The notes under the pieces: model-generated
The model's database searches: none
Seen by the model: only the letters and a program-made list of their open reading frames with translations
What the model was told of the DNA's origin: nothing
Assembly (NCBI GenBank): GCA_963745835.1
Contig: CAVUZH010000003.1
Span: forward strand, 896,001-960,000
Direction: 5' to 3'
DNA from: an uncultured delta proteobacterium
GTDB taxonomy: Bacteria > Desulfobacterota > Binatia > UBA9968
DNA length: 64,000 bases
Part shown: one piece after another, positions 280 through 44,890 of the stretch
Position numbering within the stretch: position 1 is the stretch's first letter
Layout: each line of letters begins with the position of its first letter
Position numbers and translations under genes: made by a program

Positions 280-1575
280 ATGACTACAGAACGACCCTTG
301 CGCTTCTGCATGGTGACCACTTTTTACCCGCCCGATGCTTTCGGCGGAGATGCTGTCTTCGTTCAGCAACTGTCCAATGAATTGGCAAGGCGGGGCCACG
401 ACGTAAACGTGGTCTATTGCAGGGACGCCTATCGCCTAGGGGGTGGACGAACTCCATTAATCACTCACGAGGACCATCCCAATGTAACTGTTCATGCGTT
501 GAAGAGTTCGATGGGTATTTTGTCGCCTCTGGCGACGCACCAGACTGGATCGCCTCTCCTAAAGAATTCCCGGTTGAAAGGCATTTTTGAACAACCGTTT
601 GATGTTATTCACTACCACAACATCTCATTGGTGGGGGGACCACAAATCCTCCACCGGGGTCACGGTATCAAGCTCTACACGCTGCACGAATACTGGCTGG
701 TCTGTCCGACCCATATGCTGTTCAAATTCAACCGGGAAGCTTGCACATTGAGGCAATGTTTACCTTGCACTTTGATTCATAGGCGCCCGCCACAGCTTTG
801 GCGCTATACGGAGGCGATTTCGCAAGCCGTGAAACAGGTGGATGTTTTTATTGCACCGAGCGAATTTACCAAGAACAAGCATCTGGAGATGGGTTTGCAG
901 ATTCCAATTGTCGTTATACCTTACTTCACCTCGCGATGGGGCTTATCCGAGAACGATCCCGCGCCGAGTATGCCCGAGAAACCGTATTTTCTTTTTGTCG
1001 GGCGCCTGGAAAAGATTAAGGGATTGCAGCTGCTGCTCCCGGTTTTTCGCCGGTATCAAAAAGCCGAGCTGTGGATTATCGGCACCGGAGGTTACGAATC
1101 GGTTCTTCGTCGTATGGCTCGAGGATCTCCCAATATCAAGTTTCTGGGCCAGCAGTCGGGCGAACGGCTTCAAAGTCTCTACCGTGATGCTACAGCGCTC
1201 ATTGTTCCGTCTCTATGGTATGAGGTCTTTGGGATCGTAATCCTTGAAGCGTTTTCGCTAGCTACTCCCGTCATCGTGAGAAACCGGGGAGGAATGCCAA
1301 AGATCGTGGAAGAAAGCGGCGGCGGGTTTGTTTATGGGACCGAAGAGGAACTCTTGGGAGTCATGGAGCGGTTGTTGCTCGATTCAAACCTCAGGAAGGA
1401 AATGGGACAACGCGGTTACGAAACCTTGCAAAAGAAATGGCGTGCCGATGTTCACATCAAACAGTACCTGGAGCTGATCGAACAGATTGCGGCAACTCGA
1501 AAGGAGGAAGCTCCGGCGCCTAAGGATTCATCAATGTTGCCGGTCAGAAATCACGGCCGCTATGTCTCAGAATAA
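280..1575 (+). CDS. GT4 family glycosyltransferase with Cys-rich insert
   Basis: N-terminal TTFYPP..GG, FVGRLEKIKG, PSLWYEVFGIVILEA (EX7E) and an HEYWLVCP...C..C..C insert. Paralogue of 36730-38014. Confidence 0.9.
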   Translation: MTTERPLRFCMVTTFYPPDAFGGDAVFVQQLSNELARRGHDVNVVYCRDAYRLGGGRTPLITHEDHPNVTVHALKSSMGILSPLATHQTGSPLLKNSRLKGIFEQPFDVIHYHNISLVGGPQILHRGHGIKLYTLHEYWLVCPTHMLFKFNREACTLRQCLPCTLIHRRPPQLWRYTEAISQAVKQVDVFIAPSEFTKNKHLEMGLQIPIVVIPYFTSRWGLSENDPAPSMPEKPYFLFVGRLEKIKGLQLLLPVFRRYQKAELWIIGTGGYESVLRRMARGSPNIKFLGQQSGERLQSLYRDATALIVPSLWYEVFGIVILEAFSLATPVIVRNRGGMPKIVEESGGGFVYGTEEELLGVMERLLLDSNLRKEMGQRGYETLQKKWRADVHIKQYLELIEQIAATRKEEAPAPKDSSMLPVRNHGRYVSE

Positions 1576-1604
1576 CAGGCCTGTCGGAGATCAATATCGC
1601 AGAC

Positions 1605-2582
1605 ATGCAGACGGGTGAAAAGGCAAAACTACTTCATCATGATCCCGTCCGGATAGGACTCGTGGGTTGCGGCCGGGTAGCGGAATTCGGCTACTTGCCG
1701 GCGTTTAAACAAGCGAAGGGGATCAAGCTCGCCGGTGTCGCGGATATCAACCGATCCCGCTGCGAGGAGATTGCGCCCGGAGTGCCGGCGCATCAAAATA
1801 TTCACGCCCTAATCCACGCCGGCGGCATCGACGCGCTGGTCATTTCCACACCGACACGGTTCCATCTTGCAGATGCGCGCTCGGCCGCTAACGCCGGATT
1901 ACCGGCGCTCCTGGAAAAGCCGCCGGGTCTGAATCTCGATGAAGCCAGAGCTCTTTATGATTTGCGGCCTTGCCCGTGGATTGGATTTAATCGGCGATTC
2001 GATCCCGATATCGCGAAACTAAAATACCAGTCGCCTCGGGACGGAAACATACACCTAGAATTACATTATCGGAGGAGCTCCTGGAAACCGTTCGACATGC
2101 AGGATGACGCGCTTCTTGACCTGGCGCCACATCTCGTCGATCTCGCTTGCTGGCTCACCGGGGGTCAAATTCTATCGACGCGGGCTGTCTTGTTGAACCA
2201 GCGTCGAGCTCGACTCGACCTAAAGCTAGAGCGTGGCCATGCCGTCATCTCATGCTCGAATGACACCCACTACCGCGAGCGCATCGTCTTTAAAGATTTA
2301 CGGGGACGTGTCTGTGGGTCGTATAAACGCGGCGGACTTGTCTCGGCGATAGCGGCCAGACTGCACCGGAAGAGGGAGAGTCCTCTTGTGAAACCGATTG
2401 TAGGTCAACTTGAAGCTTTTGCGCTCGCCGTACGTGGCATGGTCGACTGGAGGCCTTTGGCTACGTCAGCAGAAGGCTTGACGGTCATGGCCGTGATTGA
2501 CGCGGCGCGGCGTTCGGCAGCTCAACGCGGCGTTGAGTGCCGGTTGCCGCCTGCTGTCAAACTCGTTGAGGAGCATTCTTGA
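1605..2582 (+). CDS. Gfo/Idh/MocA family oxidoreductase
   Basis: IGLVGCGRVA Rossmann motif, STPTRFH, LLEKP, GFNRRF, DLAPHLVD. Confidence 0.88.
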   Translation: MQTGEKAKLLHHDPVRIGLVGCGRVAEFGYLPAFKQAKGIKLAGVADINRSRCEEIAPGVPAHQNIHALIHAGGIDALVISTPTRFHLADARSAANAGLPALLEKPPGLNLDEARALYDLRPCPWIGFNRRFDPDIAKLKYQSPRDGNIHLELHYRRSSWKPFDMQDDALLDLAPHLVDLACWLTGGQILSTRAVLLNQRRARLDLKLERGHAVISCSNDTHYRERIVFKDLRGRVCGSYKRGGLVSAIAARLHRKRESPLVKPIVGQLEAFALAVRGMVDWRPLATSAEGLTVMAVIDAARRSAAQRGVECRLPPAVKLVEEHS

Positions 2583-8736: not shown

Positions 8737-9870
8737 GTGAAACTCATTACGGTCAAAGATTGCTATCCTCTCTGCATCATCGCCCTCATACAAGTAGCGA
8801 ATCGGATTCCTTCGCCTAAATTGAGGTTGTTTCTCGTGAAAGCCGTCGCCTCAATGGCGCACCGGTTGTCAACAACAAAAAAAAGACTCAGTGAAAAGAA
8901 TGTGGGCGAAATATTTGGCGGTCATTTAAGCAAGGAGCGGATCGAAGCAATCGTCAAATCCTCATTTTATGAATTTTGGCGCGAAATTTTTTTAATGTCG
9001 CCGAGCAAAATCCCAATGGCTCCGCTTAGGAAAGTCAATATTCATGGCCTGGACCATTTACAGAACGCGGTAAACAAAGGAAAAGGCGTCATATTGTGGG
9101 AGAGCAGCCATTTTGGCGGAAGGTTCCTGGCGAAACGAATCTTGTGTGAGAAAGGCTTTGCACTGCACCAAGTCCATGGCGAATATCACATGGCAGGACT
9201 TCCCAATAACGGAAGCTTTGGAAGCTGGACAAGGAAACATTTCATACGTCCTTTCTTCGAGAATTGCGAAAGCTGTTTCGTTAAAGAAACAATCCATATA
9301 ACCGCCGGGCACTCCCTCGCCGTTTCCAAGATTCTCTTGAAGCTGCTGAAGCAGAATAGCATTATTTGCATTAGCGCAGATGTTGGCCGTGGACATAAAT
9401 TAATTTCCGTCCGGTTCCTCGGCCGCACCGAATTGTTTCCAACAGGAATGGTCACTCTTGCAAAACTAACCGGGGCGCCGATTCTTCCTTTGTTCTGCCT
9501 CCAGGAAAATGGGAGTACGGCGAGTCTCATCATTGAGTCGCCTGTTTGTCTTGAAATGGATCCGGATCGAGAGAGCAATTTAACAAAGACCGTTATTCAG
9601 TACGTGGGTTTGTTGGAGTCGTATATTATGAAGTACCCGGAACAGTACCGAAATTGGCACTTACTCTGTTCGCCACTTAGGCCTATTCCAGAAGCACGAG
9701 CCGGTTACGCTCGCCCGCGCAGCTCTTTCTCAAAAGTGATTGATTCCCCAGTACTACGTGAAATCTTTATAGATGGGTTACATGTTAGAACAGCGCGACG
9801 TAAATCACGCGGCAATGTCGTTTCAGCTGAATCTAAAGTTGTTGTCTTTACTTCTCAAAGGCAACCATAA
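8737..9870 (+). CDS. Lysophospholipid / lipid A late acyltransferase family protein
   Basis: GLDHLQNAVNKGKGVILWESSHFG, ADVG, VRFLGRTELFPTGMVTLAKLTGAPILP, YPEQY..WH. Confidence 0.8.
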   Translation: MKLITVKDCYPLCIIALIQVANRIPSPKLRLFLVKAVASMAHRLSTTKKRLSEKNVGEIFGGHLSKERIEAIVKSSFYEFWREIFLMSPSKIPMAPLRKVNIHGLDHLQNAVNKGKGVILWESSHFGGRFLAKRILCEKGFALHQVHGEYHMAGLPNNGSFGSWTRKHFIRPFFENCESCFVKETIHITAGHSLAVSKILLKLLKQNSIICISADVGRGHKLISVRFLGRTELFPTGMVTLAKLTGAPILPLFCLQENGSTASLIIESPVCLEMDPDRESNLTKTVIQYVGLLESYIMKYPEQYRNWHLLCSPLRPIPEARAGYARPRSSFSKVIDSPVLREIFIDGLHVRTARRKSRGNVVSAESKVVVFTSQRQP

Positions 9871-10978
9871 AGCTGCAGGGGAACTATTGCAGGATGGTGC
9901 TGTTCGACCGGAAGATTTTATTCGCTTCGTCGAGCAGCATTGGTTACATCTTCTGGTTTTTCCTCTGCTCAACGGATCGCCGGCACGGAAATGGCTGCCG
10001 CGCAAGTGTTTCGCTGAACTTAAAGCTTACTCCTTACGACAATGGGCTACACAGGAGCGCCTGATCCGAGAACTTTTTGGTATTTCAACTCTCTTGGAAG
10101 CAGCCGGCCATGAGTTCATATTGCTCAAGGGACCTTATCTCGCCGAGCGGTTCTTCGGGGGTATCGATCGCCGCCCATTCTCGGACCTGGACATTCTTAT
10201 CAGAAGAGAAGATATCGCAGCGGTGGAACGGCGTTTGTGCGATAACGGTTTCGCCAACAACTCCTCTACTTTACTTAGCCGGCGACTCACTACTTATTTT
10301 ACCTATTCCTTTGACTTCGTTAAGCCCAATGTTGCGGTCGATCTGCATTGGCGTTTTTCGGCCCAGCTTACCCACCGTCTCGATTACCAAGCTATCTGGG
10401 AACAGAAACAAGTCTTCAGCTTGCGCACGCATCGTTTTTGGGTATTGCCCGACGAGTACGAAGTAGTTTTCAATCTCATCTCCATCTTCAAAGACCTGGA
10501 GATGGGTATCGCCCGTTTAAGATCCTTCGTTGATTTATACTTCATCCTTAGCCGAGTCGGTGACCAACTCGACTGGGAAGCATTTCGCGAACATCGGAAG
10601 CGTGAGAAGGTTCTCCGGATCTCCGTTAGTATTCTAAATTTGTTTTTCGAGTTGTTCGACTGCAGGGACGAATTTCCAAGGGTGGCTGCAATGGTTGCGG
10701 GCGAGGAGCGACAAATCAAGGTCGTTCCCGTAAAACACTACCGGGATTTAATGGACGTAGTTCCCGGAGCGGCGCGGAACAAGATGTGGGCGTCTGATCT
10801 ATACGAATGCTCCCGGTTCAATCTGTTTCTGTGGTGGGTCCTAGGGTTGCCGTTTCGTATCGCCGTCTACCATCCAGCCAAGTATGCTCGGATAAAAGAT
10901 ATGATGAATTGGATAGGTTTTGCGCGGCCCGAACGCAGACTTGAGGCAGACGCGCTCAGGGAAATGAATAATCAATAA
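9773..10978 (+). CDS. Uncharacterised nucleotidyltransferase family protein (NTP_transf_5-like)
   Basis: ILLKGPYLA...RPFSDLDILI, VDLHW, LRSFVDL. True start may be 9782 or 9815. Confidence 0.85.
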   Translation: MGYMLEQRDVNHAAMSFQLNLKLLSLLLKGNHKAAGELLQDGAVRPEDFIRFVEQHWLHLLVFPLLNGSPARKWLPRKCFAELKAYSLRQWATQERLIRELFGISTLLEAAGHEFILLKGPYLAERFFGGIDRRPFSDLDILIRREDIAAVERRLCDNGFANNSSTLLSRRLTTYFTYSFDFVKPNVAVDLHWRFSAQLTHRLDYQAIWEQKQVFSLRTHRFWVLPDEYEVVFNLISIFKDLEMGIARLRSFVDLYFILSRVGDQLDWEAFREHRKREKVLRISVSILNLFFELFDCRDEFPRVAAMVAGEERQIKVVPVKHYRDLMDVVPGAARNKMWASDLYECSRFNLFLWWVLGLPFRIAVYHPAKYARIKDMMNWIGFARPERRLEADALREMNNQ

Positions 10979-11885: not shown

Positions 11886-11907
11886 TCCACTCAGTGGAAC
11901 ACAAAAT

Positions 11908-14026: not shown

Positions 14027-14737
14027 ATGTCGTCGTTAGTCAGTTGCATCGTTCCGGTTTTCAACGGCGAGCGATATTTGGGCGAGGCGCTCGAGAGTAT
14101 TCTGGCGCAAACCTACCGGCCGCTCGAGATTATCGTTGTCGATGATGGATCGACCGACACTACGCCAGGGGTCGCGGCTTGTTACGAAGAGCAAATTCGC
14201 TATGTAAGACAAGATAACGCCGGAGCGCCAAGCGCGCGTAATCTTGGGCTGAGCCTTTCCGGCGGCGGGTTTGTAGCGTTTCTCGATGCCGACGACCTCT
14301 GGGGTGCCGAGAAGTTGGAACGGCAAATGCGGCGATTCGATGTGCGTCCGGAACTCGAACTATGTGTCACGTACTTGCAGAATTTTTGGATTGCGGAACT
14401 GAAGGCTGAAGAGAACCGCTTCAAAGGCCATCGGCTCTCCGAGCCGGTGCCTGGTTACGTTACACAGACTCTCTTGGCCCGCAGATCCGCTTTCGACAAG
14501 GTCGGCATGTTTGACGAGTCTTTGCAGGTCGGAGATACGACGGACTGGTTTTTACGCGCCGGAGAGCGGGGGCTAGTAACTGAATTGCTTACCGATGTAC
14601 TAGTTAATCGACGGATGCACGAGCATAACATGTCTATGCAGTCGGGCACTCGTCGTATGACCCCGCAAATGCAACATTCGATGTTGCGTGTCGTTAAGGC
14701 GTCGCTCGATCGCAGCCGGCTTGATCACAAGAACTGA
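14027..14737 (+). CDS. GT2 (GT-A) glycosyltransferase
   Basis: VSCIVPVFNGERYL, VVDDGSTD, ARNLG, FLDADDLW. Confidence 0.9.
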   Translation: MSSLVSCIVPVFNGERYLGEALESILAQTYRPLEIIVVDDGSTDTTPGVAACYEEQIRYVRQDNAGAPSARNLGLSLSGGGFVAFLDADDLWGAEKLERQMRRFDVRPELELCVTYLQNFWIAELKAEENRFKGHRLSEPVPGYVTQTLLARRSAFDKVGMFDESLQVGDTTDWFLRAGERGLVTELLTDVLVNRRMHEHNMSMQSGTRRMTPQMQHSMLRVVKASLDRSRLDHKN

Positions 14738-14897
14738 AAGACTTTATTCTTCGATTCCGTTCAGCTATCTACCGATTTCGATCTGAAAAATCAGAATCCA
14801 ACGGACCCTGCTGCCTTGAAGTTTTCGACCATACCGTGGGGTAAAAAAAGAATAGGCGGCGGCCTTTGTAGGAATACGGACTCGGCAGGACAACGCC

Positions 14898-15882
14898 ATG
14901 GATTTTAAATACGACGTGGAAGCGGATTGGGTTCTGTTGACGACCTGCAATTTCCGTTGTGCCTACTGCTTTGTTCCGCTTCCTGACTTGGCGAGCAAGT
15001 TAACGACGCATGGCACGAATGTTCAGTGGGCGGAAGGATTCGCGGCAACCGAAAAGACCTGGCTATTGCACATAAGCGGGGGCGAACCTTCCATTTATCC
15101 GGGCTTCGTTGATCTGTGCGAAAAACTCAGTCGGCGTCATTACTTGTCAATTAATTCCAACCTGTCGCACCGGTGTATAGAAACCTTCGGGGAAACAATC
15201 GATCCGGAACGAGTTCATTTTATCAATGCAGCCGTGCACTATGACGAGAGGCCAAGGCCGAGATCGCTTGCGGCTTTCATAACTCGTGTGCAGAAGCTCC
15301 ATATGCACCGGTTTCATGTGTTTGTCTCCTTGGTTATGACTCCTATCATGGTGAGGAACTTTCCTGAAATATCGAGGTACTTCGAATCCCATGGATTATC
15401 TCTCATTCCAAAGGTTATGCGCGACCGATTCCAAGGGAAGGTCTACCCACATGCGTACTCTGGTGAGGAGAAGTCCCTCCTGCGTGAATATTTAGCGAAG
15501 GCAAGGGAGAACTATGTTTCAGTCAAAGCCGTGATGGGTGAAACACCGACGATTAACATGCTGGATGATGACAGGTTCCTGGATTGCCCTCGGAGTTATC
15601 GCGGTAAGCTCTGTGGTTCGCGACACAACTTTGTCCGCATCGAACCGAATGGAGCTGGTGGTCCGTTGTGGGTCGGCGATGCAACTTGGCAATATCCTTC
15701 TAAAAAATGTCGCTCTTCTTAACACGCCCAAACCTTGTGACAGTTTTTACTGTCCGTACTTTTGTGAGAAATACACGTCATCGCCATTCGCGCCTGCGCA
15801 AGAAACGAAGAGAGATCTTGGTGATTTTTTCGTGTCATTGAAGGCGTGGCGAGATTCGCAACGGCAACAGCCGGAGAGATAA
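14898..15882 (+). CDS. Radical SAM protein with C-terminal Cys-rich (twitch/SPASM-like) domain; one +1 frameshift near 15652
   Basis: CNFRCAYC, SGGEP. ORF 14898-15722 continues in the frame of 15538-15882: ..LC..RIEPNG/VVRCG..LGNI..KPCDSFYCPYFC. Confidence 0.8.
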
Positions 15883-15992
15883 GGAAATAAGCACTCTGAA
15901 GGGCGGAGCGTAACGCAGCTGCGCGCCGGCTTGCGTCCACTCAACAGGATCCGCCCAGTGCTTTAAGTTCGACGTCTCGGCGGATAGAAGCA

Positions 15993-16715
15993 TTGACGAC
16001 GGAGAACTACTTTACGGGATCATCTTTGATCTGCTGCATCGTGCCAGTTTACAACGGCGAAAAGTATTTGTCCGAGACGCTGGATAGTATTCTGGCGCAG
16101 ACGTATCGGCCTTTGGAGATACTCGTGGCCGACGATGGCTCGACGGGACCGCCTCGGTTGTGGCGAGTTATGGCGATCAGGTTCGACATCTATTCCAGCC
16201 TAACGCTCCAAACGGCCGCTATATGCAACTTGGGCCTCAGGACCGCGCAACGCGCCTTTCGTTTCGTGGATGCAGGACGATCTGTGGCATCCAGACAAGT
16301 TAGGAAGTCAGATAGCTCGTTTTTAGGTATGGCTTCAATTCGACGTGAGCGTCACACATGGGCCAAAATTTTTCGGTCATGGAGCTCGAGGAGGAACGTG
16401 AGCAGTTCCACGATCACGGGGTTTCACAACCCTACCCAGTATGTGCCGCAGGCGCTCCTGGCACGACGCACGCTGTTTAACACAGTGGGTTACTTCAGGT
16501 GTCCGCTCCCAGGCAGGTGGACGCTACCAATTGGTTTCTGCGCGCAGTTGAACATGGAGCATCCTGGAGTTGTTACCCGATGTTCTGGTGTATAGTCGCA
16601 TCCTCAGAATAACTTAAGTCGGCGCATGAGTTCTGCCAGCAGAAGTGAGTATCTGCAACTCTTGAAGTCCTCGTTAGATCGCCGGCGCCTTCAAAAAATC
16701 CGAAGACGCTGCTAA
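15993..16715 (+). pseudogene. GT2 glycosyltransferase pseudogene (paralogue of 14027 and 17413)
   Basis: ICCIVPVYNGEKYLSETLDSILAQTYRPLEILVADDGST, then multiple frameshifts. C-terminal 'LKSSLDRRR' is recognisable near 16660-16690. Confidence 0.8.
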
Positions 16716-16885: not shown

Positions 16886-16889
16886 TCCG

Positions 16890-17339
16890 ATGTTAAGTTT
16901 AAAAGATCGTTTGCGTGTGAACGAAGAAGAGGTCGCTGCCAAGGTGATCGATGGCGAGGCGATCATCATCAACCTGGCCAACGGGGTCTACTACAGTATG
17001 GACAAAGTAGGGGCTCTGATGTGGGATGTACTTCAGGGAGGACATAGCTTAGAAGAAGCGATTGTGGCCATCACTGGCCAGTACGACGTTTCGCCTGAGC
17101 AGGCAGAATTGAATGTACGAGAGTTGGTCCAGGAGCTTGTGCAAGAGAATCTGCTGCGTCCTTCAGACAACGGCGTTACCGCTGATGCGTCAGGAACGAT
17201 TGAGCAGCAGGAAAAAATGCCATACGAGACTCCCAAGCTCAATATCTATAGGGATATGGGAGACCTCCTGGCACTCGATCCTCCGGTTCCCGGTCTCGGC
17301 GACACTCCCTGGAAAGAGCCCGAAGAGCCTTCCAAGTAG
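16890..17339 (+). CDS. PqqD-family / RiPP recognition element (RRE) protein fused to a C-terminal leader-like peptide tail
   Basis: aa 1-90 fit the PqqD fold (VIDGEAIIINLANGVYYSMDKVGALMWDVL..GHSLEE..YDVSPEQAELNVRELVQELVQENLL), followed by a linker and the tail MPYETPKLNIYRDMGDLLALDPPVPGLGDTPWKEPEEPSK. Confidence 0.88.
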   Translation: MLSLKDRLRVNEEEVAAKVIDGEAIIINLANGVYYSMDKVGALMWDVLQGGHSLEEAIVAITGQYDVSPEQAELNVRELVQELVQENLLRPSDNGVTADASGTIEQQEKMPYETPKLNIYRDMGDLLALDPPVPGLGDTPWKEPEEPSK

Positions 17340-17412: not shown

Positions 17413-18114
17413 ATGGAACAACCGCTGATCAGTTGTATCATTCCGGTCTTCAATGGGGAGCGATATCTGGGCGAGGCACTCGACAGCATTCTCGCTCAGA
17501 GCTACCGACCCATCGAGATCATCGTCGTCGATGACGGATCCACCGATGGCACGGCTGGTGTCGTTGCTGCTTTTGGTGATCAGGTGCGCTACCTCAGGCA
17601 GAACAATCAGGGACCGTCGTCGGCGCGAAACTTGGGCATCCGCGCTGCCGCAGGCGGCTTCATTGCTTTTCTCGATGCAGACGATTTGTGGCATTCCGAA
17701 AAGCTACAACGACAAATGGACCGCTTCAAAACGCGTCGGGAACTGGACTATTGTGTAACGCATGTCCAGAATTTCTGGATTCCGGATCTCAGGGAGGAAG
17801 CAGCAAAGTATCGCGACCATCGCATCACGCGACCCATTCCGGGATACGTCACAGGAACGCTCCTTGGGCGTCGCGCCTTTTTTGAATCAGTGGGCTTATT
17901 CAACTTGGCTTTGGCCCACGGCGACAGCACCGAGTGGTTTTTGCGCGCAGCCGAACGCGGAGCGGTGATGGAACTTTTGCCGGAAGTCCTTATGTATCGT
18001 CGCCTGCACCCCACCAACCGCAGTCGGGTTCGCGCGGCTACTAGCCGTGAGGAGTATCTAAGGCTCGTGAAATTGTCGCTCGACCGCAGGCGCGGTTCCG
18101 AGCAGAACTCCTAA
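17413..18114 (+). CDS. GT2 (GT-A) glycosyltransferase
   Basis: ISCIIPVFNGERYL, VVDDGSTD, FLDADDLW. Paralogue of 14027. ATG 17413 lies downstream of the PqqD stop. Confidence 0.9.
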   Translation: MEQPLISCIIPVFNGERYLGEALDSILAQSYRPIEIIVVDDGSTDGTAGVVAAFGDQVRYLRQNNQGPSSARNLGIRAAAGGFIAFLDADDLWHSEKLQRQMDRFKTRRELDYCVTHVQNFWIPDLREEAAKYRDHRITRPIPGYVTGTLLGRRAFFESVGLFNLALAHGDSTEWFLRAAERGAVMELLPEVLMYRRLHPTNRSRVRAATSREEYLRLVKLSLDRRRGSEQNS

Positions 18115-25385: not shown

Positions 25386-25409
25386 AATCGACGGCCGGAG
25401 GCTCCATCC

Positions 25410-28860: not shown

Positions 28861-28898
28861 TCAATAAGACTTCCTGATTGAGCTGATAAATTATCGGG

Positions 28899-28990: not shown

Positions 28991-29046
28991 GAGATAAAAT
29001 GCCATCCAAGCGGCATTGAATTTCACGCAGCAATAGCTGGAAGGAT

Positions 29047-30171: not shown

Positions 30172-30172
30172 G

Positions 30173-31282
30173 ATGGCCGTGATTGAAACTGAAACAATTC
30201 AAGTCTCCCCGCCGCGTGCTCCAACCGTCGATACCGACCTCGGCTTCAAAGTGATGCGGGAGGCTTTTGCTGAGGCGAAGCGCTCGCATTCTGACGCCTT
30301 TTGCGAATCAACCTACATTCTAGCTGGCCAAGCCGCGCAAATGCGAATTGTCGGACGGAAACTTGCTCAGTTTATGAATTTGCCATTTGCACATCTCCGG
30401 TCTGATGATGCGCATTCCCTGATGCCCGGCCTCACCATTGAAATCTGGGATCAGGCTGAAACAAATGTCTCCTGCCAAATTGGGTTGACACGAGACAATC
30501 TGGATTTGCATCCGAATCTAAAGCGTTCTGCGGATGGTCGCTATGCTTCTTATCAACTCCAACATTCATTGGTATGTCTCGACCGTGTGTCCGGCTTGAT
30601 GATTGGTTATATATCGAATGCGGAAGAGCTGTCACTTTATGAACGCGGCAGGCCACTGCATGTGCCCTTGAGTTTGTGGCACAAGAACCAAGACATGCTG
30701 CTAATGCATGCCGGTCTGGTGTCCCAGAACGGTCGAGGTGTGTTGCTAGCGGGTCCCGGCGGGTCAGGCAAATCGACGTCGGCTGTCATGTGTGCATATG
30801 CGGGATTTGATTATCTGAGTGATGATCTAGTTGGCTTGGAACTCTCTGGCGGCAGTTTTGTCGGACATAGTCTCTACAATTCGACTTTCATGGAGCCGGA
30901 CCATCTTAAGCGTTTTAGTCAGCTTGAACGGCATGCGATAAGAGGCAGGTATTCATTCGAAAAAAAACATCTGGTCTTGCTGTCACAGATTGCCTCGCTG
31001 CGATTCGCGCACTCCTGCCGGATTCGTTCCATAGTCCTCCCTCGCGTCTTGCATCGTCCGACATCGGTTCTTCGGCGCGCTTCGAAAGGCGAGACACTCA
31101 TGGCCCTTGCCCCGAGCTCTCTTCTCGTTGGCGAAAGAAGTCAGGGTGTGGGCGGTTTCAATAAACTCGCGCGGTTGGTGGAGCAGGTGCCTTGCTACTG
31201 GTTAGAACTGAGTAACGCTCTGGAGGAAATTCCTCTTGTTCTTGGAGGATTGCTTTCGGTGGGAGCGGGCGTTGAAACTTGA
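30173..31282 (+). CDS. HPr kinase-related P-loop kinase
   Basis: MHAGLVSQNGRGVLLAGPGGSGKST...DYLSDD (H, Walker A and DD of the HprK C-domain), ending VPCYWLEL. Confidence 0.82.
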   Translation: MAVIETETIQVSPPRAPTVDTDLGFKVMREAFAEAKRSHSDAFCESTYILAGQAAQMRIVGRKLAQFMNLPFAHLRSDDAHSLMPGLTIEIWDQAETNVSCQIGLTRDNLDLHPNLKRSADGRYASYQLQHSLVCLDRVSGLMIGYISNAEELSLYERGRPLHVPLSLWHKNQDMLLMHAGLVSQNGRGVLLAGPGGSGKSTSAVMCAYAGFDYLSDDLVGLELSGGSFVGHSLYNSTFMEPDHLKRFSQLERHAIRGRYSFEKKHLVLLSQIASLRFAHSCRIRSIVLPRVLHRPTSVLRRASKGETLMALAPSSLLVGERSQGVGGFNKLARLVEQVPCYWLELSNALEEIPLVLGGLLSVGAGVET

Positions 31283-32381
31283 GGCGGCGAAACAAGATGC
31301 CTCGAACGGGGTCATCGCCTTCGATCTAATGCGGACCGCATTCGAGCGAACTTGGAAAAGTCATCCGGATCGCCGCTGGGATTCATTGTGCAGATTTGCC
31401 GGCCGACCGGCTCGGATCAGGGTGGTGGGGCAGGGCCTTTCAAAACAGATTGCCCGGGCTTTCGAACATCTTCTGGTTAAAGAAAATCCATCGAGCCCCG
31501 AACTCAAAATCGATCTATGGGATGAAGGGGACACGTCGGTCTCTTGTCCGGTGAATACGAAACCACTGGACCCGCGTCTGCTGAAATCGAGTTCTTATGT
31601 TGAATTCGGATTAATCCTAGGCTCCCTTAACGATCCTTATATCGGCTGCCAGCGCCCCCAAGTGGTCACCTGGTTTGGCCGTCGGGAGCAGCACATCGTT
31701 GGCTGGATATCCCATCACCATCAGCTCCCGATTTACGAACGCGGCAAGCCACTGCACTTTCCGTTGTTACTGTGGCATAGCGACCGAGGCGCGGAGGTGA
31801 TCCACGCCGCCCTCGTTTCTAAAAACGGCAAAGGAGTGCTCTTTGCGGGCAAAGGCGGGGCGGGGAAATCGACGGTCGCGTTAGCTTGTATTCGAGCCGG
31901 CTTTGGCTATCTCGGCGACGATTACATCGGGTTAGAAGCATGCGCGGGCGGGCACTTCGTCGGCCACAGTTTATACAGCGCGACTTGGCTCATGGCCGAT
32001 CATTTCGCGCGGTTTCCCCAATTGATGAGCTACGCAATCTACCCAGAGCGCCCTGAGCAAGAAAAAACGCTGGCTCTCTTATCTGAAGTTTTCCCGCACC
32101 AGCTTTGCCGAACTGCTACCGTCTACGCGTTGTTACTCCCACGCATCGTTGCCGATTCGGCAACCCAGATAAGGCCTGCTACGAAGGCGGAAGCGCTTTT
32201 CGCACTGGCGCCGAGCTCGATTCTCCTTCGTCCGAATTCAGGAGCAGCAACTTTGAACAAGCTTGGGCGCTTGGTTGAGCAGGTTCCGTGCTATTGGCTG
32301 GAATTTACACAAGATCTAAATGATATTCCGCCGCGGCTACAGGCCATCATCGGTCCCGCCCGGCCGGATCACTCACATTGA
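31272..32381 (+). CDS. HPr kinase-related P-loop kinase (tandem paralogue)
   Basis: IHAALVSKNGKGVLFAGKGGAGKST...YLGDDY. Shares YERG.PLH, GHSLY, ALAPSS and VEQVPCYWLE with 30173. Start uncertain. Confidence 0.82.
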   Translation: MKLEAAKQDASNGVIAFDLMRTAFERTWKSHPDRRWDSLCRFAGRPARIRVVGQGLSKQIARAFEHLLVKENPSSPELKIDLWDEGDTSVSCPVNTKPLDPRLLKSSSYVEFGLILGSLNDPYIGCQRPQVVTWFGRREQHIVGWISHHHQLPIYERGKPLHFPLLLWHSDRGAEVIHAALVSKNGKGVLFAGKGGAGKSTVALACIRAGFGYLGDDYIGLEACAGGHFVGHSLYSATWLMADHFARFPQLMSYAIYPERPEQEKTLALLSEVFPHQLCRTATVYALLLPRIVADSATQIRPATKAEALFALAPSSILLRPNSGAATLNKLGRLVEQVPCYWLEFTQDLNDIPPRLQAIIGPARPDHSH

Positions 32382-32750
32382 CTTCCAGTCGACTCAAACT
32401 CTCGATCCTTTCTACTCGTCTCCTCTTACATGTTGAACGGTTTCGCAAGCCTGGCTTTATCTCTGGGTAGGAAGAGACGGGAGCCGCTTATGACGTTGAT
32501 GATGATCCTTAGCACAGTCTTTTGCCATCTGGTTACGATCACGACTTGGGTTACAGCGAATGTTCTAGATTGCGCAGCCCGATTGATTTGCTTCTTAACA
32601 TCCTTGTTTTGCTACCTTTGTTGCTCTTCACCTTGTACGTTAGCTGGCACGTGAAGAACCGGCAGGCGGCAGCATTGGCGCGGGAAGCGGCTGAGTCAAG
32701 ACGCTGGCCGAGCCGGGAACCATAAGGCGCTGCCGTATCCATAAACGCAT

Positions 32751-33581
32751 ATGCAGTCTTACGCACAAACTAATGTTCAGCTCTTGAACCAACTTCGCTC
32801 CGAAGGTTACTCGAAAGAGGAGCGTGCATTCATTTCAAATGCCTACCAATTTGGAATGCGTATTTTTACCGGTCTCTATTTGCCCTCAGGCAAGCCGTTC
32901 CTCGACCATCTCGTAGGCACCGCCAGCATTCTTGCCTGGCTCCGCGCGCCAATCGCGGTTGTCGCGGCGGGCTTGGTCCATGCGACCTACCTTCACGGCG
33001 ACTTCGGCTGCAGGACCGGCATCTCAGACGAGAAGCGCAAGCAGGTAATCGACATCGTTGGCACGGAGAGCGAAAATTACATCACCAGATACGATCGCGT
33101 TCTCTTGACTGCCGAGGATGTCGCGTTACTTGAAAGCACGCTGCAACAATTAAGCAAGGTTGATCGCTACATCGTTCTTATGCGTCTGGCGAATGAACTG
33201 GAGCATCATTTGGATTTTGGCGGACTTTATCTTGTGCAAGGACAAAAGCAACAAGGAGCTCACCGGCGCTATCTTGAACGGCGCCTACCGGCGCTGCTCA
33301 AGCTAGCTAACGCTCTTGGTTACGGATCTCTAGCTGCGGAGTTCGAGAAGATTCAGCGGGAAATCGCCGTGCTGAAACTGCCTCTCGAACCGGTCATCGT
33401 TTCTCGCCAGAAGGTCGCTTATCTCATTGCGCCCAAATCGTACAGGGTTCGGTTTATCATTGGAGTTCCCAAACTCATGCTCCAAGATCTGCCTCAAGGA
33501 GTTAAACTTCTGTCCCTTAAGACTTATAGAGTCCTGAGCCATCTAATAGCGCAGCTTTGGAGACCTCGTAGCAGAGTATAG
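32751..33581 (+). CDS. RelA/SpoT-hydrolase-like HD-domain protein with degenerate HD motif
   Basis: PSGKPFLDHLVGTASIL...VAAGLVHATY resembles the RSH pattern SGEPY..H...VA.IL...AALLHD, with HD changed to HA. Confidence 0.65.
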   Translation: MQSYAQTNVQLLNQLRSEGYSKEERAFISNAYQFGMRIFTGLYLPSGKPFLDHLVGTASILAWLRAPIAVVAAGLVHATYLHGDFGCRTGISDEKRKQVIDIVGTESENYITRYDRVLLTAEDVALLESTLQQLSKVDRYIVLMRLANELEHHLDFGGLYLVQGQKQQGAHRRYLERRLPALLKLANALGYGSLAAEFEKIQREIAVLKLPLEPVIVSRQKVAYLIAPKSYRVRFIIGVPKLMLQDLPQGVKLLSLKTYRVLSHLIAQLWRPRSRV

Positions 33582-33627
33582 TTCGTAAAAAAACCTCTGC
33601 TCGATAAATTACCACTATTGGCTTGCT

Positions 33628-35326
33628 GTGTACGCTCAAACCAACCTTCAATTGTTTAATCAGCTTCGTCGCGACGGCTACTCAAAGACAGACCGCGATC
33701 TTGTGCGCGATGCCTATGAACTGGCGATGGTCCTTTTTAGCGGCCGCTTTCAGCCGTCGGGAAAGCCGTTCATAGCTCATGTCGTAGGAACGGCCAGCAT
33801 ACTCGCATCTCTTCAATTGCCCATTGCGGTCGTGGCCGCGGGACTGCTCCACAACGTTTATGAACAGGGCGATTTCGGAGACGGTCGTAAATGGATCTCG
33901 ACGGCGAGACGCCGTCGGATCAGGCGCGTTCTGAGCCCAGAGGTTGAAGAATGCGTTGCCAGGTTTCCTACCTTTTCTTTGGAATGGCCGACCAATCCGC
34001 TGGCGCGCGAAAATCCGCATGAACTTCCTTCAATCGACCGCGCTGTTCTATTAATTGTTTTCGCGGACCACCTCGAACATCTCCTGGATCTCGATGTTTT
34101 ATATTATCGTCATGCGATTCAACTGCGCTATCTAGACAACTCCAAAATCGCAGTTGAGACTGCCGACCGACTGGGCCAGCGTCAGTTAGCCACGGAAATG
34201 AGAGAGGCCATTCGGAGGACGGAATTCGCTGAACTGGTCGTGGAGCTCACTGAGCATCGAAGTGGGTCATTTGTTATTGTCCCCAAATCTTGCCGCATGC
34301 GATTCTCCACGGTGCTGCGCCAGGGACTCATGGATCGGGCTCACAAAGCGCGTAAAGAATTTTTAAGGCGACGTAAGTCCGTCTACCAGAAATTGCCGTA
34401 CGGCGTAAAAGCTCCCTTAGCCAAATGGATGGGAAAGAGGGAATTACTGCGCGGCGGGCTGATCATAAAATCGGAAGAGTTTAGAAGCCTCTTCCCTAGG
34501 GATGCGAGTGCTGTGTGTGTTGCAACCGGCTTTCGTTTTGTCGAAGGTCCCGTTTGGATCGCAGAGGAAAAAAGGCTCCTCTTTAGCGATATTCCCGCGA
34601 ATCGTATTTATAGACTCGCGGCCGATGGCCGCGTCATGACATTCCAGAAGCCGAGCGGCAACTCCAACGGTTTGACACGCGACCAAGAAGGGCGGCTGAT
34701 TGCGTGTGAGCAGGGCAATCGTCGAGTGACACGGACCGAAAAAGATGGCTCGATCACGCCTCTGGCCGATCGGTTTCACGGCAAGAAGCTTAACAGCCCC
34801 AATGACGTCGTCGTGAAGTCCGATGGCGCTATTTACTTCACGGACCCCGCCTACAGCATTACGCCTGGTCGGCAAGAGCAACCACTGCGAAGGAGTCTAT
34901 CGACTCTCCCCGGATGGTGAAGAGATCTCGCTCGTGGCAGATGATTTAGCTCGACCTAACGGCCTAGCGTTCTCGCCGGACGAAACGAAGCTTTACATCG
35001 ATGATTCAGAGCGCCGTCATATCCGGATATTCGATGTTGGTGATGATGGATCACTCTCGGGCGGCTCGCTGTTTCACGATATGAACGTAAGCATTCCGGG
35101 CTCCCCTGACGGCATGAAAGTGGATGTGGAAGGGCGTGTCTACTGCACGGGCGCGGGCGGCGTTTGGGTATTCGATCCTGCGGGGAATCATCTCGGAACC
35201 ATTGTTACACCAGAGAAGCCGTCGAATTGCGCCTGGGGAGACGATGATTGGCGGAGCCTTTACATTACTGCTAGTACCTCCGTCTACAAAATACGGGTCA
35301 ACACTCCTGGAATTGGAGCTTCATAA
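33628..35326 (+). CDS. Fusion of a degenerate HD-domain protein and an SMP-30/gluconolactonase; +1 frameshift near 34890
   Basis: N-half is paralogous to 32751 (YAQTNLQL, SGKPFIAHVVGTASIL, LLHNVYE). C-half has GFRFVEGPVW, SNGL, NSPND, YFTDP / GVYR, PNGLAFSPD, PDGMKVD, SNCAWG split over two frames. Confidence 0.8.
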
Positions 35327-35347: not shown

Positions 35348-36559
35348 ATGAATAACGCATCCTATTCAACACCCTCGTTGTCGCTGGCTTTATCTCTTGT
35401 TCTTCCCACCTCGGAGGAAACCCTGTTACTCCGCACATGTCTGTTGCCGCGTGATCTGGCGCGACAAGCTTGGGAAGAATGGCGTATCCGCTACGACGGC
35501 CCCGAAATGGGTTTTATCGGAAATAAACCGTCAATAAGAAAACTCCGTCCGTTGCTCTTCAGTGCCTTCCAACAGCATAACCTTCAGGCGGATAACAAGG
35601 TCAAGACCTACCTGCGATCGGTCTATCTAAAGGAGGAACTACGGAACAAGATATTTCGTCGAATTTGCCGCGCCGTTCTTCAGTTACTTCAAAGAGAAGA
35701 TTTTACCGCCATTGTACTCAAGGGCACCGCCTTGGCGGAAACCGCTTACGGCAACCCCGTGCTGCGCCATTGCCACGATATTGACATTCTGTTGCCGGAC
35801 AATGAATTGAGCCGAGCTGCGGATCTGCTGTCATCTTTGAGCTTCCGCAGAGTCGATCTACACGCCCAACCAGGAAACCCTCAAGTCAGGATGAAGCATG
35901 AGTCCGAACTCCCTCTCGAGCTTCACAGCCGACTATTCGAGGTGCCGTACTACAACGTAGTTTCCTCAGAAATTAAGGCACGAAGTAAAAGTCGGCTCAT
36001 TGCAGACATTCCGGTGAAAATCCTCACGCCCGCCGATAGCCTGCTCCATGTCTGCGGTCACGCCTCATACTCGAGCAAGCGTCCGTCGCTGCGCTGGGTC
36101 ACCGACGCCTGGTTCATTGTCGAACGTCATCCGGACCTAGATTGGGATCTGCTTTTGGAGTCCATACATCGTAGCCGACTGTCTTTACCTTTGTCCGTAA
36201 TGCTCGGGTACCTGGCAGAAGACCTGAATGCGTCAATCCCCTCTACATTTCTGAGTCGTTTGTCCGCGGCTGCATCAAAGTGCGACACGATAGAACGCCA
36301 GCTGGCGTTGCGCGGAACACGGGCGGCCGGTCAAGCAAGTCTCAAGGAATTATTTCGAAGGACAACAAACTGGCGAGAACGAGTGTTGCTCATTCAGTGG
36401 CTGCTTTTCCCATCATCCCGATATCTGCGGTGGGTGGATGAGGTCCGAGATTCGCGCCTACTACCTTTTCACTACGTTTACCGGCCAATTCGGCACTTTG
36501 CTCGATATGTTTGGTCGAAGTTACGGGGCACCATGCGGCGTACGGCGCTTGCTGAATAG
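35348..36559 (+). CDS. Uncharacterised nucleotidyltransferase family protein (NTP_transf_5-like)
   Basis: IVLKGTALAETAY...RHCHDIDILL, LELH, LLHVCGH, LRWVTDA. Confidence 0.85.
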   Translation: MNNASYSTPSLSLALSLVLPTSEETLLLRTCLLPRDLARQAWEEWRIRYDGPEMGFIGNKPSIRKLRPLLFSAFQQHNLQADNKVKTYLRSVYLKEELRNKIFRRICRAVLQLLQREDFTAIVLKGTALAETAYGNPVLRHCHDIDILLPDNELSRAADLLSSLSFRRVDLHAQPGNPQVRMKHESELPLELHSRLFEVPYYNVVSSEIKARSKSRLIADIPVKILTPADSLLHVCGHASYSSKRPSLRWVTDAWFIVERHPDLDWDLLLESIHRSRLSLPLSVMLGYLAEDLNASIPSTFLSRLSAAASKCDTIERQLALRGTRAAGQASLKELFRRTTNWRERVLLIQWLLFPSSRYLRWVDEVRDSRLLPFHYVYRPIRHFARYVWSKLRGTMRRTALAE

Positions 36560-43448: not shown

Positions 43449-44371
43449 TGGGAGCGCAACTATTTTTTTCTATCATAGTGCCAACCTATAATCGCCCCAC
43501 GCAGTTGGCCGCCTGTCTGCGTTCCCTTGCCGAAATCGATTACCCACGTGATTGCTTCGAAGTCATCGTGGTCGACGATGGCAGCGCAATTTCCCCAGAG
43601 TGGGTCGTTTCTAACTTTCGAGACCAAGCCGACTTCACGTTGATTCGACAAGCGCATGAAGGCCCGGGAGCTGCACGTAATACTGGGGCGGCACGAAGCC
43701 GGGGTAAATATCTGGCTTTTACTGCGGATGATTGCGTACCAGCACCGGATTGGTTGAGTACGCTCGCGCGGCGTTTCCGGAGCCTACCAAATTGCGCTGT
43801 CGGCGGACGAACACTTAATTATTTATCGGACAATCGTTATTCAACAGCCACCGATCTCCTGATCCAATATCTCTATCACTACTACAATCGAGATGCGCTC
43901 CGGGCACAGTTCTTCACACCTAACAACCTCGCAGTTCCTGTAGAACACTATCGCGTGTCAGGCGGGTTCGATGCATCATTCACTAGCGGTACGGGAGAGG
44001 ACCGGGACTTCTGTGATCGCTGGGTGAGTCAGGGCTATGAAATGGTTTATGCTCCTGAAGCGGTGGTTTATCATTCACATTTCCTTAGCTTACCCGAGTT
44101 TTGCTTCTTACACTTCCGCTACGGTCGCGGAACATTCGGATATCGCATGAAGCGTGCGCGCAGGGCATCCGACAACATTCATCTGGAACCATTATCGTTT
44201 TATATCAACTTGTTTCGGTATCCACTTTCGAAAGCTCCGGATTCACAGAAGCTGACGATGGCGCTGCTGCTGGGGTTATCGCAGGCGGCGAACGCAGCGG
44301 GTTATATTTGGGAAAAATTCTGCTGGGAGTTGTCGAAAAAAGAAACCGGACGGTTGGAGATGCTGCCGTGA
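43448..44371 (+). CDS. GT2 glycosyltransferase (tandem paralogue)
   Basis: FSIIVPTYNR, VVDDGS, ARNTG, AFTADDC, GEDRD. GTG start overlaps the previous stop. Confidence 0.9.
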   Translation: MGAQLFFSIIVPTYNRPTQLAACLRSLAEIDYPRDCFEVIVVDDGSAISPEWVVSNFRDQADFTLIRQAHEGPGAARNTGAARSRGKYLAFTADDCVPAPDWLSTLARRFRSLPNCAVGGRTLNYLSDNRYSTATDLLIQYLYHYYNRDALRAQFFTPNNLAVPVEHYRVSGGFDASFTSGTGEDRDFCDRWVSQGYEMVYAPEAVVYHSHFLSLPEFCFLHFRYGRGTFGYRMKRARRASDNIHLEPLSFYINLFRYPLSKAPDSQKLTMALLLGLSQAANAAGYIWEKFCWELSKKETGRLEMLP

Positions 44372-44890
44372 ACGGCATGACCTTAAACTCCTGGTTTTTT
44401 CTCTGCTCGACGGTTCGCCGTTGCGACGATGGTTGCCGCAGGAATATCTGCGCGAGCTCAAAAGGTTCTCTCTACAGCAGTGGGCGAGGCAGGAAACGCT
44501 GGTGCGCGAACTCATGGCCGTCGCAACCGTTTTCGCGGCGGCAGGCCAGGAATCTATTCTCGTTAAAGGAGCCTATCTCGCGACACGGTTCTTCGGAGGA
44601 ATCGATCGTCGCCCATTCTTTGATCTAGATCTGCTCGTTAACAGAGACAAGCTGCCGGAAGCGCAGCGCCTGATGAGAGGTAGCGGCTATACCAGAAAAA
44701 TCCGCCATCCTATTCAATGAAACTTTCACCAATTACTTCGCGCACGGCTTCGACTTCACCAAGTCGGGTGTTGCAGTGGATTGCACTAGGCTCTTTCCGC
44801 CAACCCGGCGCATAACCTCGACTACCGCGCCATCTGGCAGCGGCGGCAGAACTTCGTATTGTACAATCGGAAATTTTCTGTGTTTATCCG
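44370..44890 (+). pseudogene. Truncated, frameshifted copy of nucleotidyltransferase 9773-10978
   Basis: LLVFSLLDGSPLRRWLP..QQWARQE..LVKGAYLATRFFGGIDRRPFFDLDLL is near-identical to 9773. Frameshift near 44700, stop at VDLH*, and both termini missing. Confidence 0.8.

Follow-up and report, generated by a model that had tools for sequence, protein, structure and literature searches.

The closest described relatives of the locus treated here are the linear polyphosphorylated peptide (LPP) clusters of Bacillota, which lie in capsular polysaccharide loci (Popov et al., Nat Commun 2026, PMC13381572; statements on LPP here and below refer to parts of that paper). An LPP set is composed of an RRE (recognition element of RiPPs, peptides made by ribosomes and modified after translation), an HprK-like kinase (lppK, TIGR04352), a nucleotidyltransferase (NTase) of Pfam family PF14907 (lppN), a signal-peptidase-like protease, and an MsbA-like pump; the precursor of 35-200 aa carries the motif YxxPxVLxHQxIxFETxxS. 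This study analysed a window of 64,000 nucleotides (the whole stretch of DNA, G000:C3:896001-960000, with positions counted from its first letter) from an uncultured delta proteobacterium whose genome comprises 7.28 Mb in 25 contigs (completeness 97.1, contamination 9.33). In this window, a 149-aa PqqD/RRE protein (16890..17339, + strand), here called RRE-tail, ends in a tail that resembles an LPP leader. Together with an HprK-like kinase, a small family 2 glycosyltransferase (GT2), and a PF14907 NTase, RRE-tail forms a conserved, widespread four-part module embedded in a polysaccharide locus.

In the LPP system, a crystal structure has the YxxP part of the leader bound by the RRE, and RREs tell similar leaders apart. 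LppK polyphosphorylates a Ser three residues past the cleavage site and refuses Thr and Tyr, LppN was inactive in the heterologous host, and LppB was insoluble without the leader; the final product and role of LPPs are given as unknown, and the authors call LPPs Bacillota-restricted (PMC13381572). Among lasso peptides, an HPr-kinase homologue phosphorylates a Ser of paeninodin, and in the pseudomycoidin pathway an NTase puts a hexose on the phosphate (parts of PMC8498205), precedents that an initial annotation of this window had cited correctly. PF14907 is the Pfam family of both LppN and PbaN (part of the PMC13381572 supplement). That annotation had also proposed a wholly undescribed system, a claim that is overtaken by the publication of the closely related LPP clusters in 2026; the module is therefore not of a wholly undescribed kind. 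What would be undescribed is the variant: an RRE-leader fusion with an obligatory GT2, widespread outside Bacillota, within LPP/paeninodin-type tailoring. In a search of the open-access literature, no report of a fusion between an RRE and a leader-like tail was found.

The fused RRE-tail protein

Forty open reading frames (ORFs) of the window were scanned with Pfam and NCBIfam. In RRE-tail, the Pfam PqqD match spans residues 23-89 (E 2e-14) and is followed by a 60-residue tail, of which the leader-like part begins at Y112 (17223..17339, + strand) and reads [YF]xxPx[LV], xx[YFH]x[DE]M...LDP[PI], and a short variable end. Overall, a lasso-B1-like PqqD/RRE domain takes up residues ~12-90, followed by a linker that varies (93-110) and a tail that is conserved (111-144). 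Profile matches of the RRE were strongest to TbiB1 (5v1u, E 6.4e-19), followed by PbaB1 (9x90, 4.9e-14) and LppB (9x8z, 1e-8). Counted from its Tyr, the tail keeps the register of the LPP leader at P (+3), [LVI] (+5), and M (+11, where LPP has Ile); at +18, the window tail differs from LPP in having an invariant Asp where LPP has the phosphorylated Ser. No model in Pfam or NCBIfam covers the tail, and the ESM Atlas returned only clusters named 'PqqD family protein'.

The tail is more conserved than the RRE domain that carries it. Residues 111-144 are nearly invariant in alignments, and all 52 of 52 aligned sequences share E23, Y34, and S36 in the RRE as well as P115, M123, D130, and P131 in the tail. 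All 45 intact orthologues, which come from at least 12 phyla, contain the motif [YFW]xxPx[LVI]xx[YFH]x[DE]M; the frameshifted L038 and L039, both of which have the tail, were excluded from this count. No Ser, Thr, or Tyr is conserved after the leader-like motif, and certain members finish 7 residues past DPP. A homologue search with RRE-tail gave 1321 proteins at E<=1e-3 among 1381 candidates, and the best 120 of these 1321 were 147-183 aa long and 67-97% identical, with 98-100% query coverage. With a tail-only profile, 2123 cluster representatives were matched at E<=1e-3 (125 at E<=1e-10) among 1.84 billion; the many proteins of 44-116 aa among these matches were, in the 21 cases read, mostly fragments, internal-Met calls, and contig-edge artefacts. 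Only two of 1445 candidates passed as longer fused forms. P0196 (511 aa) is a fusion of a family 4 glycosyltransferase (GT4) to RRE-tail, and P0195 (281 aa) is a tandem RRE-tail whose first unit retains only YxxPxI..YR of the tail. Separately, P0197 (3353 aa) consists of ~38 tandem 83-aa repeats, each with F/YxxPxVLxxYxxM followed by a Ser/Thr/Pro-rich stretch, a likeness that may have arisen by chance in a repeat protein or may mark a poly-leader substrate.

For comparison of loci, one genome per species was used, yielding 47 RRE-tail loci, all in metagenome-assembled genomes (MAGs) with ORFs called by a simple script. Their labels include deltaproteobacteria and gammaproteobacteria, Methylomirabilis, Binatia, Rokubacteria, Gemmatimonadota (many), Rhodothermales, Acidobacteria, Isosphaeraceae, Phycisphaeraceae, Verrucomicrobia, an anammox bacterium, Ignavibacteria, Solirubrobacteraceae, Polyangiaceae, Geminicoccaceae, and Eubacteriales, so that the fused family spans many Gram-negative phyla in contrast to the Bacillota of LPP. 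Among relatives of the window genome the distribution is uneven: 10 of 41 genomes (the window's own included) gave a match at E<=1e-3, as did 1 of the 7 further genomes of its genus, and full-length tail-bearing matches among the 41 were limited to G006 and G018. The unpublished genomes G012 and G018 entered this comparison by presence or absence of a match alone. Additionally, an LLLLDPIHDV.E.GWP tail sub-type was seen in five loci (L045, L048, L049, L053, and L055) with the consensus F.xP.L.K[YF]TDM.[DE]LLLLDPIHD[VI].[DE].GWP; its hosts are anammox, Syntrophobacteraceae, Ignavibacteria, Polyangiaceae, and Eubacteriales MAGs, and it is linked to the kinase in 4/5 loci (not L049), to GT2 in 5/5, and to the NTase in 2/5 (L053 and L055).

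The conserved gene neighbourhood

Neighbours were tallied by comparing 33 window proteins with the six-frame ORFs of the 47 loci (phmmer, >=60 bits, within 6 kb of the RRE-tail gene). Across all 47 loci, GT2 was found in 43, the kinase in 35, the NTase in 30, and GT4 in 17. Where at least 4 kb of downstream sequence was present (33 loci), GT2 was detected in every locus, the kinase and the NTase in 25 each, and all three together in 22, a positive outcome, across phyla, for the neighbourhood check that the initial annotation had proposed for tail-bearing PqqD homologues. The other partners in the same 33 loci were GT4 (14), AGE (6), SDR (6), HD (5), SPASM (2), AsnB (2), and radical SAM (1). 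The radical SAM, SPASM, and AsnB proteins, which the initial annotation had counted as parts of the system, thus accompany RRE-tail in few loci; the radical SAM, AsnB, and acyl carrier protein (ACP)/ligase genes are not conserved partners of RRE-tail. Pfam agreed with the tally for 134 neighbour ORFs from 20 loci, confirming NTP_transf_5, GT2, and GT4 (148 ORFs had been picked, and 14 were dropped for size, five of which were scanned separately).

The usual gene order is (NTase), RRE-tail, kinase, one to three GT2 genes, and NTase, with the kinase gene frequently abutting or overlapping the RRE-tail gene; in L025 (7344-9239), a GT2 is fused to an HprK-like kinase. In the window the module is dispersed, with an NTase 6 kb upstream of RRE-tail and the kinases 13 kb downstream. 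Kinase 1 (369 aa, 30173..31282, + strand), whose orthologues adjoin the RRE-tail gene in other phyla, scores 57.5 bits with TIGR04352, and kinase 2 (381 aa, 31236..32381, + strand) scores 49 bits with this model and E 1.4e-7 with Pfam Hpr_kinase_C; the P-loop and the following DD are intact in both. The Hpr_kinase_C matches are weak, and TIGR04352 is the top NCBIfam model for both kinases at scores under its cut-off of 200. The PF14907 (NTP_transf_5) NTases lie at 9773..10978 (E 7e-37) and 35348..36559 (E 2.1e-37), both on the + strand, the second being the best match to cassette-flanking NTases in other phyla; a third copy (44370..44852, + strand, 75.7 bits) is broken by one TGA and one TAG within the match. 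A PDB sequence search gave no match for the NTase and only weak HprK matches for the kinase. The small GT2 gene immediately downstream of RRE-tail (17413..18114, + strand) matches Glycos_transf_2 at E 3.5e-35, and a paralogue (14027..14737, + strand, E 1.5e-30) is 92% identical to its counterpart in L009, the closest relative among the loci.

Much of this arrangement is shared with LPP: a discrete lasso-B1-like RRE, a PF14907 protein, a [Y/W]xxPx[V/L] leader, and a polysaccharide-locus setting with a tyrosine kinase, GT1, and GT2 (compared with parts of PMC13381572). The HprK-like kinase, with TIGR04352 as its best NCBIfam model at scores under the cut-off, and the MsbA-like transporter in the same array, also under the cut-off of its model, may be further shared parts. 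In the window the leader-like motif is fused to the RRE, whereas LPP carries it on a separate precursor, and the window kinases fall far under the TIGR04352 cut-off (57.5 and 49 vs 200 bits). A small GT2 is the constant partner of the fused module, whereas the pump is not conserved, an MsbA-like protein being found in only 5/47 fused-type loci. The window module has no dedicated peptidase (TIGR02228 gave 0 matches in the genome, which is 97.1% complete), and neither a signal peptidase nor an ABC transporter was detected by Pfam among the 134 neighbour ORFs of 20 loci. A discrete precursor was found neither in the gaps of the window nor within 10 kb in the 47 fused-type loci. Without signal peptidase or discrete precursor, and with a pump in so few loci, there is no sign of an exported product.

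Relative to the paeninodin and pseudomycoidin clusters (parts of PMC8498205), the window shares the B1 RRE, the HPr-kinase homologue (acting on Ser in those clusters), and the NTase (hexose-to-phosphate in those clusters); it differs in having no B2 transglutaminase-like protease (PF13471) among its 40 scanned ORFs and no separate precursor with the module. A lasso peptide reading of the two AsnB genes was rejected, as they score 130 and 243 bits with the cyclase model (cut-off 525) and above the asparagine synthase cut-off, with Cys2 kept. Membership in a SynChlorMet cassette was also rejected (ScmD 32.6 bits, cut-off 100; ScmC 29.2 bits, cut-off 125). Giant ORFs near RRE-tail in other loci were considered as conserved glycosylation targets and set aside: that of L016 is an FG-GAP/reprolysin protein with a T9SS tail, that of L045 an RHS protein, and that of L027 belongs to no family.

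Readings of the tail and the modelled kinase complex

The tail may be a built-in leader rather than a modified core, a reading that we favour tentatively. The [YF]xxPx[LV] part would then occupy the RRE cleft in cis and the xx[YFH]x[DE]Mx[DE]LL part would contact the kinase. With the tail as leader and not core, the fused protein would be a permanent subunit through which the kinase, and probably the NTase and GT2 as well, is assembled or activated, and these enzymes would add phosphate and a phosphate-linked sugar to a leaderless acceptor, most likely a glycan or lipid-linked intermediate made by the locus around the module. To the polysaccharide pathway, and not to the module, would be assigned the radical SAM, AsnB, ACP/ligase, and redox genes. 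Engineered fusions of leaders to enzymes reportedly give leader-independent RiPP enzymes, such as cyanobactin heterocyclases and lanthipeptide synthetases; these share the tethering of a leader in cis, and differ in being laboratory constructs on catalytic enzymes, whereas RRE-tail would be a natural fusion on a stand-alone RRE. Taken as a whole, the built-in-leader, permanent-subunit reading is held at somewhat short of even confidence.

A structural model of kinase 2 (alignment of 32 rows) with RRE-tail (alignment of 52 rows) supports binding of the two, as a matter of model confidence and not of measurement. The ipSAE was 0.76 (runs 0.73, 0.77, and 0.76) vs 0.12 for the best of three controls, the runs share at least 50% of contacts, and partner pLDDT is at least 75; the mark used for such models is reached by 116/157 solved complexes and 2/215 mismatched pairs, counts that are rough here as own alignments were used. 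On the kinase side, the modelled interface is formed by residues 206-207 (P-loop) and 316-348. RRE-tail contributes a single face of its RRE sheet (residues 12-38, among them the invariant Y34 and S36) together with residues 120, 122-123, and 125-127 of the tail. We know of no solved complex between an RRE and an HprK-like kinase, and a pass through memorised structures thus seems unlikely.

Several observations count against the permanent-subunit reading. To our knowledge, glycan-directed activity has been reported for neither HprK-like kinases nor PF14907 enzymes. In the model the tail is close to the P-loop of the kinase, in the manner of a substrate. The module parts are spread over 35 kb in the window, vs adjacent in most other loci; the kinase and the NTase were each missed in 8/33 loci at the threshold used, and the comparison loci are the script-called MAGs described above. 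The kinase and NTase of every characterised relative act on a leader-carrying peptide (parts of PMC8498205 and PMC13381572). Finally, L009 carries three RRE-tail genes (6198-6644, 11639-12085, and 14225-14671) that encode identical proteins, a pattern more readily expected of a consumed substrate than of a catalytic subunit; their coding sequences differ by 2-3 nucleotides, the flanks differ (copy 2), and GT2/GT4 genes follow each.

In the reading of the initial annotation, RRE-tail would itself be the scaffold and the substrate: the kinase would phosphorylate it at some residue in the tail or the linker, a sugar would be added to the phosphate by the PF14907 enzyme, as in the pseudomycoidin pathway, and GT2/GT4 would extend it, yielding a phospho-glycosylated protein or peptide that is perhaps handed to membrane machinery. 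Known precedents act on leader-bearing peptides, the fused-type loci hold no other leader-bearing peptide, the near-identical triple genes of L009 are a multi-copy precursor pattern, the linkers are variable, and both tail residues 120-127 and the kinase P-loop (206-207) stand in the modelled interface. The residues themselves speak otherwise. Since the tail has no conserved Ser, Thr, or Tyr after the motif, with the invariant Asp at the +18 position of the LPP Ser, and since some tails stop 7 residues past DPP and LppK accepts Ser only, refusing Thr and Tyr (part of PMC13381572), the tail is probably not the acceptor. The phospho-primed tail proposed by the initial annotation is accordingly not backed by sequence, there being no conserved hydroxyl residue for a strictly Ser-specific type of kinase. 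No peptidase accompanies the module, and an exporter does so in only 5/47 loci. Overall, a self-modified scaffold is considered rather unlikely.

RRE-tail could also be a consumable protein primer that receives a phosphate-linked first sugar from the kinase and the PF14907 enzyme, possibly on the invariant Asp130 or a linker residue, with GT2/GT4 extending it and the glycan being handed to the Wzx/GT-C machinery; we regard this as distinctly improbable.

The invariance of S36 invites a regulatory explanation, in which the kinase phosphorylates the RRE domain, for example at this family-specific Ser, and polysaccharide synthesis is governed by its phospho-state; the NTase and GT2 would be ordinary pathway enzymes that are merely co-localised. 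The classical role of HprK is regulatory phosphorylation of a small protein, and a switch would agree with it and with a cassette that has neither exporter nor peptidase. S36 and Y34 are invariant in 52/52 sequences, whereas G or N occupies the S36 position in the two lasso B1 proteins with alignments printed, and residues 32, 34, 36, and 38 are in the modelled interface. Residues 32-38 are, for all that, among the interface residues of the RRE sheet, and the 25 lowest-error contacts listed are all with kinase residues 317-347 (P-loop contacts not being in that output). The nearest characterised kinases are biosynthetic, and a switch would leave unexplained both the invariant leader-like tail and the tight PF14907/GT2 linkage, including the GT2-kinase and GT4-RRE fusions. 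A regulatory switch is judged to have a low probability.

The same genome contains a second cassette, which bears on the remaining explanation. The only other PqqD gene, which has no tail, lies on contig C25 in a cassette of this PqqD gene, a 61-aa ORF, an HprK-like kinase, and a PF14907 NTase (L007:11379-13934, G000:C25:171379-173934), located between a CapD-like dehydratase and a UDP-glucose dehydrogenase in another polysaccharide locus. The 61-aa ORF (L007:11707-11889) lies between PqqD and the kinase and has 70 homologues of 41-89 aa, near-invariant over the initial 36 residues and variable beyond them, the same pattern as in LPP precursors (part of PMC13381572). It contains YAAPVIL and has Met at +11 and, at +18/+19, an invariant Gly-Ser; its KRREFVK stretch and AFA site may resemble a twin-arginine signal and a signal-peptidase site, respectively. 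The C25 cassette therefore has the LPP feature of a separate leader-bearing precursor with Ser, which the window module lacks, and is an LPP-like cluster outside Bacillota in a genome with no dedicated signal peptidase. With this precursor-like ORF, the genome carries both the discrete-precursor and the fused form.

With a discrete leader-bearing precursor encoded on C25 and RREs known to discriminate similar leaders (part of PMC13381572), the tail could be a pseudo-leader that keeps the RRE auto-inhibited until a true precursor from elsewhere displaces it, so that the module tailors an unlinked LPP-like peptide. The C25 cassette, however, has its own RRE, kinase, and NTase, the fused-type loci of other phyla hold no separate precursor within 10 kb, and a covalently tethered leader would be hard to displace. 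Such a gate is considered very unlikely.

The surrounding polysaccharide locus and the significance of the module

To place the module, 120 kb upstream of the window was retrieved and its ORFs were scanned. Polysaccharide genes run on upstream without a break for ~106 kb, nearly all on the + strand, giving an array of ~155 kb from L003:13270 to window position 49383 (G000:C3 about 789270-945383), of which the 45-kb cluster drawn by the initial annotation is the distal third. The array starts (L003:13270-19728) with a NusG-like protein, Wza (Poly_export + SLBB), Wzc (Wzz + GNVR + P-loop), and a phosphoglycosyl transferase (PGT; CoA_binding_3 + Bac_transf, 228.9 bits at C3:795141-795707). Further on are a split Wzy_C gene (L005; 33.5 bits, cut-off 31.7), two Wzx genes (one fragmentary, L005:18836-19582, and one at L002:7941-9443), and, 24 kb upstream of the RRE gene, an MsbA-like ABC transporter (L002:11331-13193; TIGR02204 257 bits, below cut-off). 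The upstream part also holds GT2, GT4, and PMT_2 genes, five LPG_synthase_TM genes, a WecG-family transferase, AsnB, AMP-ligase, hexapeptide acetyltransferases, carbamoyl-/methyltransferases, and deoxysugar enzymes.

The earlier statement that no export genes were visible therefore holds within the 64-kb window, where Wzx, Wzy, Wza, Wzc, and PGT are all absent, but not beyond it, since all of them lie upstream in the same co-oriented array together with the NusG-like and MsbA-like genes. For the bulk of the 45-kb cluster, the ordinary-locus explanation that the annotation had itself named beforehand, an export set just upstream, is thus largely what was found, and the many glycosyltransferases, AsnB, ACP/ligase, and redox enzymes need no new system. 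The cluster as drawn is a mixture of the module with an ordinary, though very large, Wzx/Wzy-type locus. With Wzx/Wzy-dependent exopolysaccharide and capsule loci, the array shares the NusG-like antiterminator, Wza, Wzc, PGT, Wzy_C, two Wzx, many GT2/GT4/GT-C proteins, sugar-nucleotide enzymes, and acetyl-/carbamoyl-/methyltransferases; it differs in its ~155 kb of nearly one-stranded genes, its many LPG_synthase_TM/PMT_2 proteins, and the embedded RRE/kinase/NTase module. The Wza, Wzc, PGT, and Wzx proteins of this genome had no phmmer match in the 47 loci, a weak negative because Pfam detects Wzx in L019 and L020.

As a side observation, the ~155-kb stretch may be one locus or several in tandem: it contains at least five LPG_synthase_TM genes upstream and one in the window, many PMT_2/DUF2079 GT-C proteins, three carbamoyltransferase genes, and AsnB/AMP-ligase paralogues, with two short minus-strand interruptions near L005:16.7-19.9 kb and L006:1.5-4.7 kb.

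The gene content listed for the window by the initial annotation proved real in the Pfam and NCBIfam scan of the 40 ORFs, comprising the RRE, two kinases, two NTases, two AsnB, glycosyltransferases, an ACP/ligase/acyltransferase set, and redox enzymes. The distal portion of the super-locus (280..44852, + strand) encodes six GT4 domains, GT2, GFO/SDR/AGE, two AlkP-like proteins, a flippase-like protein, an LpxL-like acyltransferase, an ACP, and an AMP-ligase; its glycosyltransferases amount to six GT4 domains, six GT2 (one degenerate), and one PMT_2-type GT-C membrane protein (18194..19795, + strand, Pfam), and the flippase-like protein is LPG_synthase_TM. The two AsnB-type glutamine amidotransferases are at 19949..21844 (+ strand; asn_synth_AEB 349 bits, cut-off 267; N-terminal MCG) and 26373..28439 (+ strand; asn_synth_AEB 388 bits; lasso cyclase model 243 bits, cut-off 525; N-terminal MCA). 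Two radical SAM enzymes with auxiliary Cys domains had been described. Both genes are there, and only the protein at 25410..26336 (+ strand) has a SPASM match (E 7.8e-11), the gene at 14841..15882 (+ strand) showing only the Radical_SAM core in Pfam. The latter is one gene split by a frameshift near 15655-15680: in tblastn, the intact 346-aa orthologue of L009 matches 14841-15882 in frame 3 and then frame 1. Two HD/DUF6817 proteins (32751..35326, + strand, Pfam) follow the kinases, the second fused to an SGL domain and split near 34.82-34.92 kb. A degenerate GT2 lies at 15993..16679 (+ strand; a garbled ORF that matches the L009 GT2 at only 45% identity and 133 bits) and a GT2 remnant at 28517-28813.

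The locus ends (45586..49383, + strand, Pfam and NCBIfam) with a sigma-54 activator without HTH, a TIGR03015-like AAA ATPase, and a TviC-like epimerase. The activator (in the stretch 45586-48132) stops after the AAA lid and is possibly truncated, the AAA ATPase coming next. The two resemble PEP-CTERM system parts, though the genome is without exosortase; a PEP-CTERM/exosortase reading was rejected, with no PF09721 genome-wide and scores of 273.8 for TIGR03015 (cut-off 324.5) and 267.7 for TIGR02915 (cut-off 502.6).

Near-identical DNA was found in soil and rhizosphere metagenome runs of several studies, and contigs of two DNA runs and two RNA-library runs were compared over window positions 15001-35000. 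The RRE-tail ORF is covered without indels by independent contigs (X5 16676-17794 and X6 16689-17393). The base at 15655 is missing in both X5 and X6, although an extra A behind 15647 in X6 means that only X5 restores the radical SAM frame, and the base at 34887, at the HD-SGL split, is missing in X6. Because independent contigs lack one base at each of these positions, at least some of the splits are probably assembly errors rather than pseudogenes. In contrast, the degenerate GT2 looks like a real pseudogene and not an assembly error, since no indel was listed there in the two independent contigs X5 and X6 (the X6 contig reaching only to 16250). Contigs of the RNA-library run X17 match seven cluster pieces at 99-100%, both kinase genes included, with DNA carry-over possible, so that no expression is claimed; stretches that these contigs leave uncovered carry no information.

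Two further observations concern the sequence. Single-frameshift splits are many here, affecting radical SAM, HD-SGL, carbamoyltransferase, sulfatase, PMT_2, DegT, GT4, and PGT genes, at window positions 15647-15680 and 34823-34920 and in L001, L005, and L006. A spike in contig depth at 17513-17555 (42.7 in X5), with many loose ends on either side, reflects a conserved GT2 motif that recruits contigs of unrelated organisms and is not a feature of the locus.

The LPP paper, in the parts referred to here, leaves open the role of PF14907, the final product, and the reason for the capsule-locus setting (PMC13381572). The fused form is far more widespread, with 2123 tail cluster representatives (E<=1e-3) and at least 12 phyla, and comes as a fixed minimal set of RRE-leader, kinase, GT2, and NTase; because the leader is inseparable from the RRE, it would provide a simple four-protein system in which to test action of the kinase and NTase on peptide versus glycan. 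The C25 cassette additionally places LPP-like clusters outside Bacillota. If RRE-tail were a protein primer, it would be a ribosomally made primer whose RRE recognises itself, linking RiPP logic to capsule biogenesis, and would explain why LPP and paeninodin clusters are set in capsule loci. If instead the tail is a natural cis-leader, RRE-tail would parallel, in nature, the leader fusions devised in RiPP engineering.

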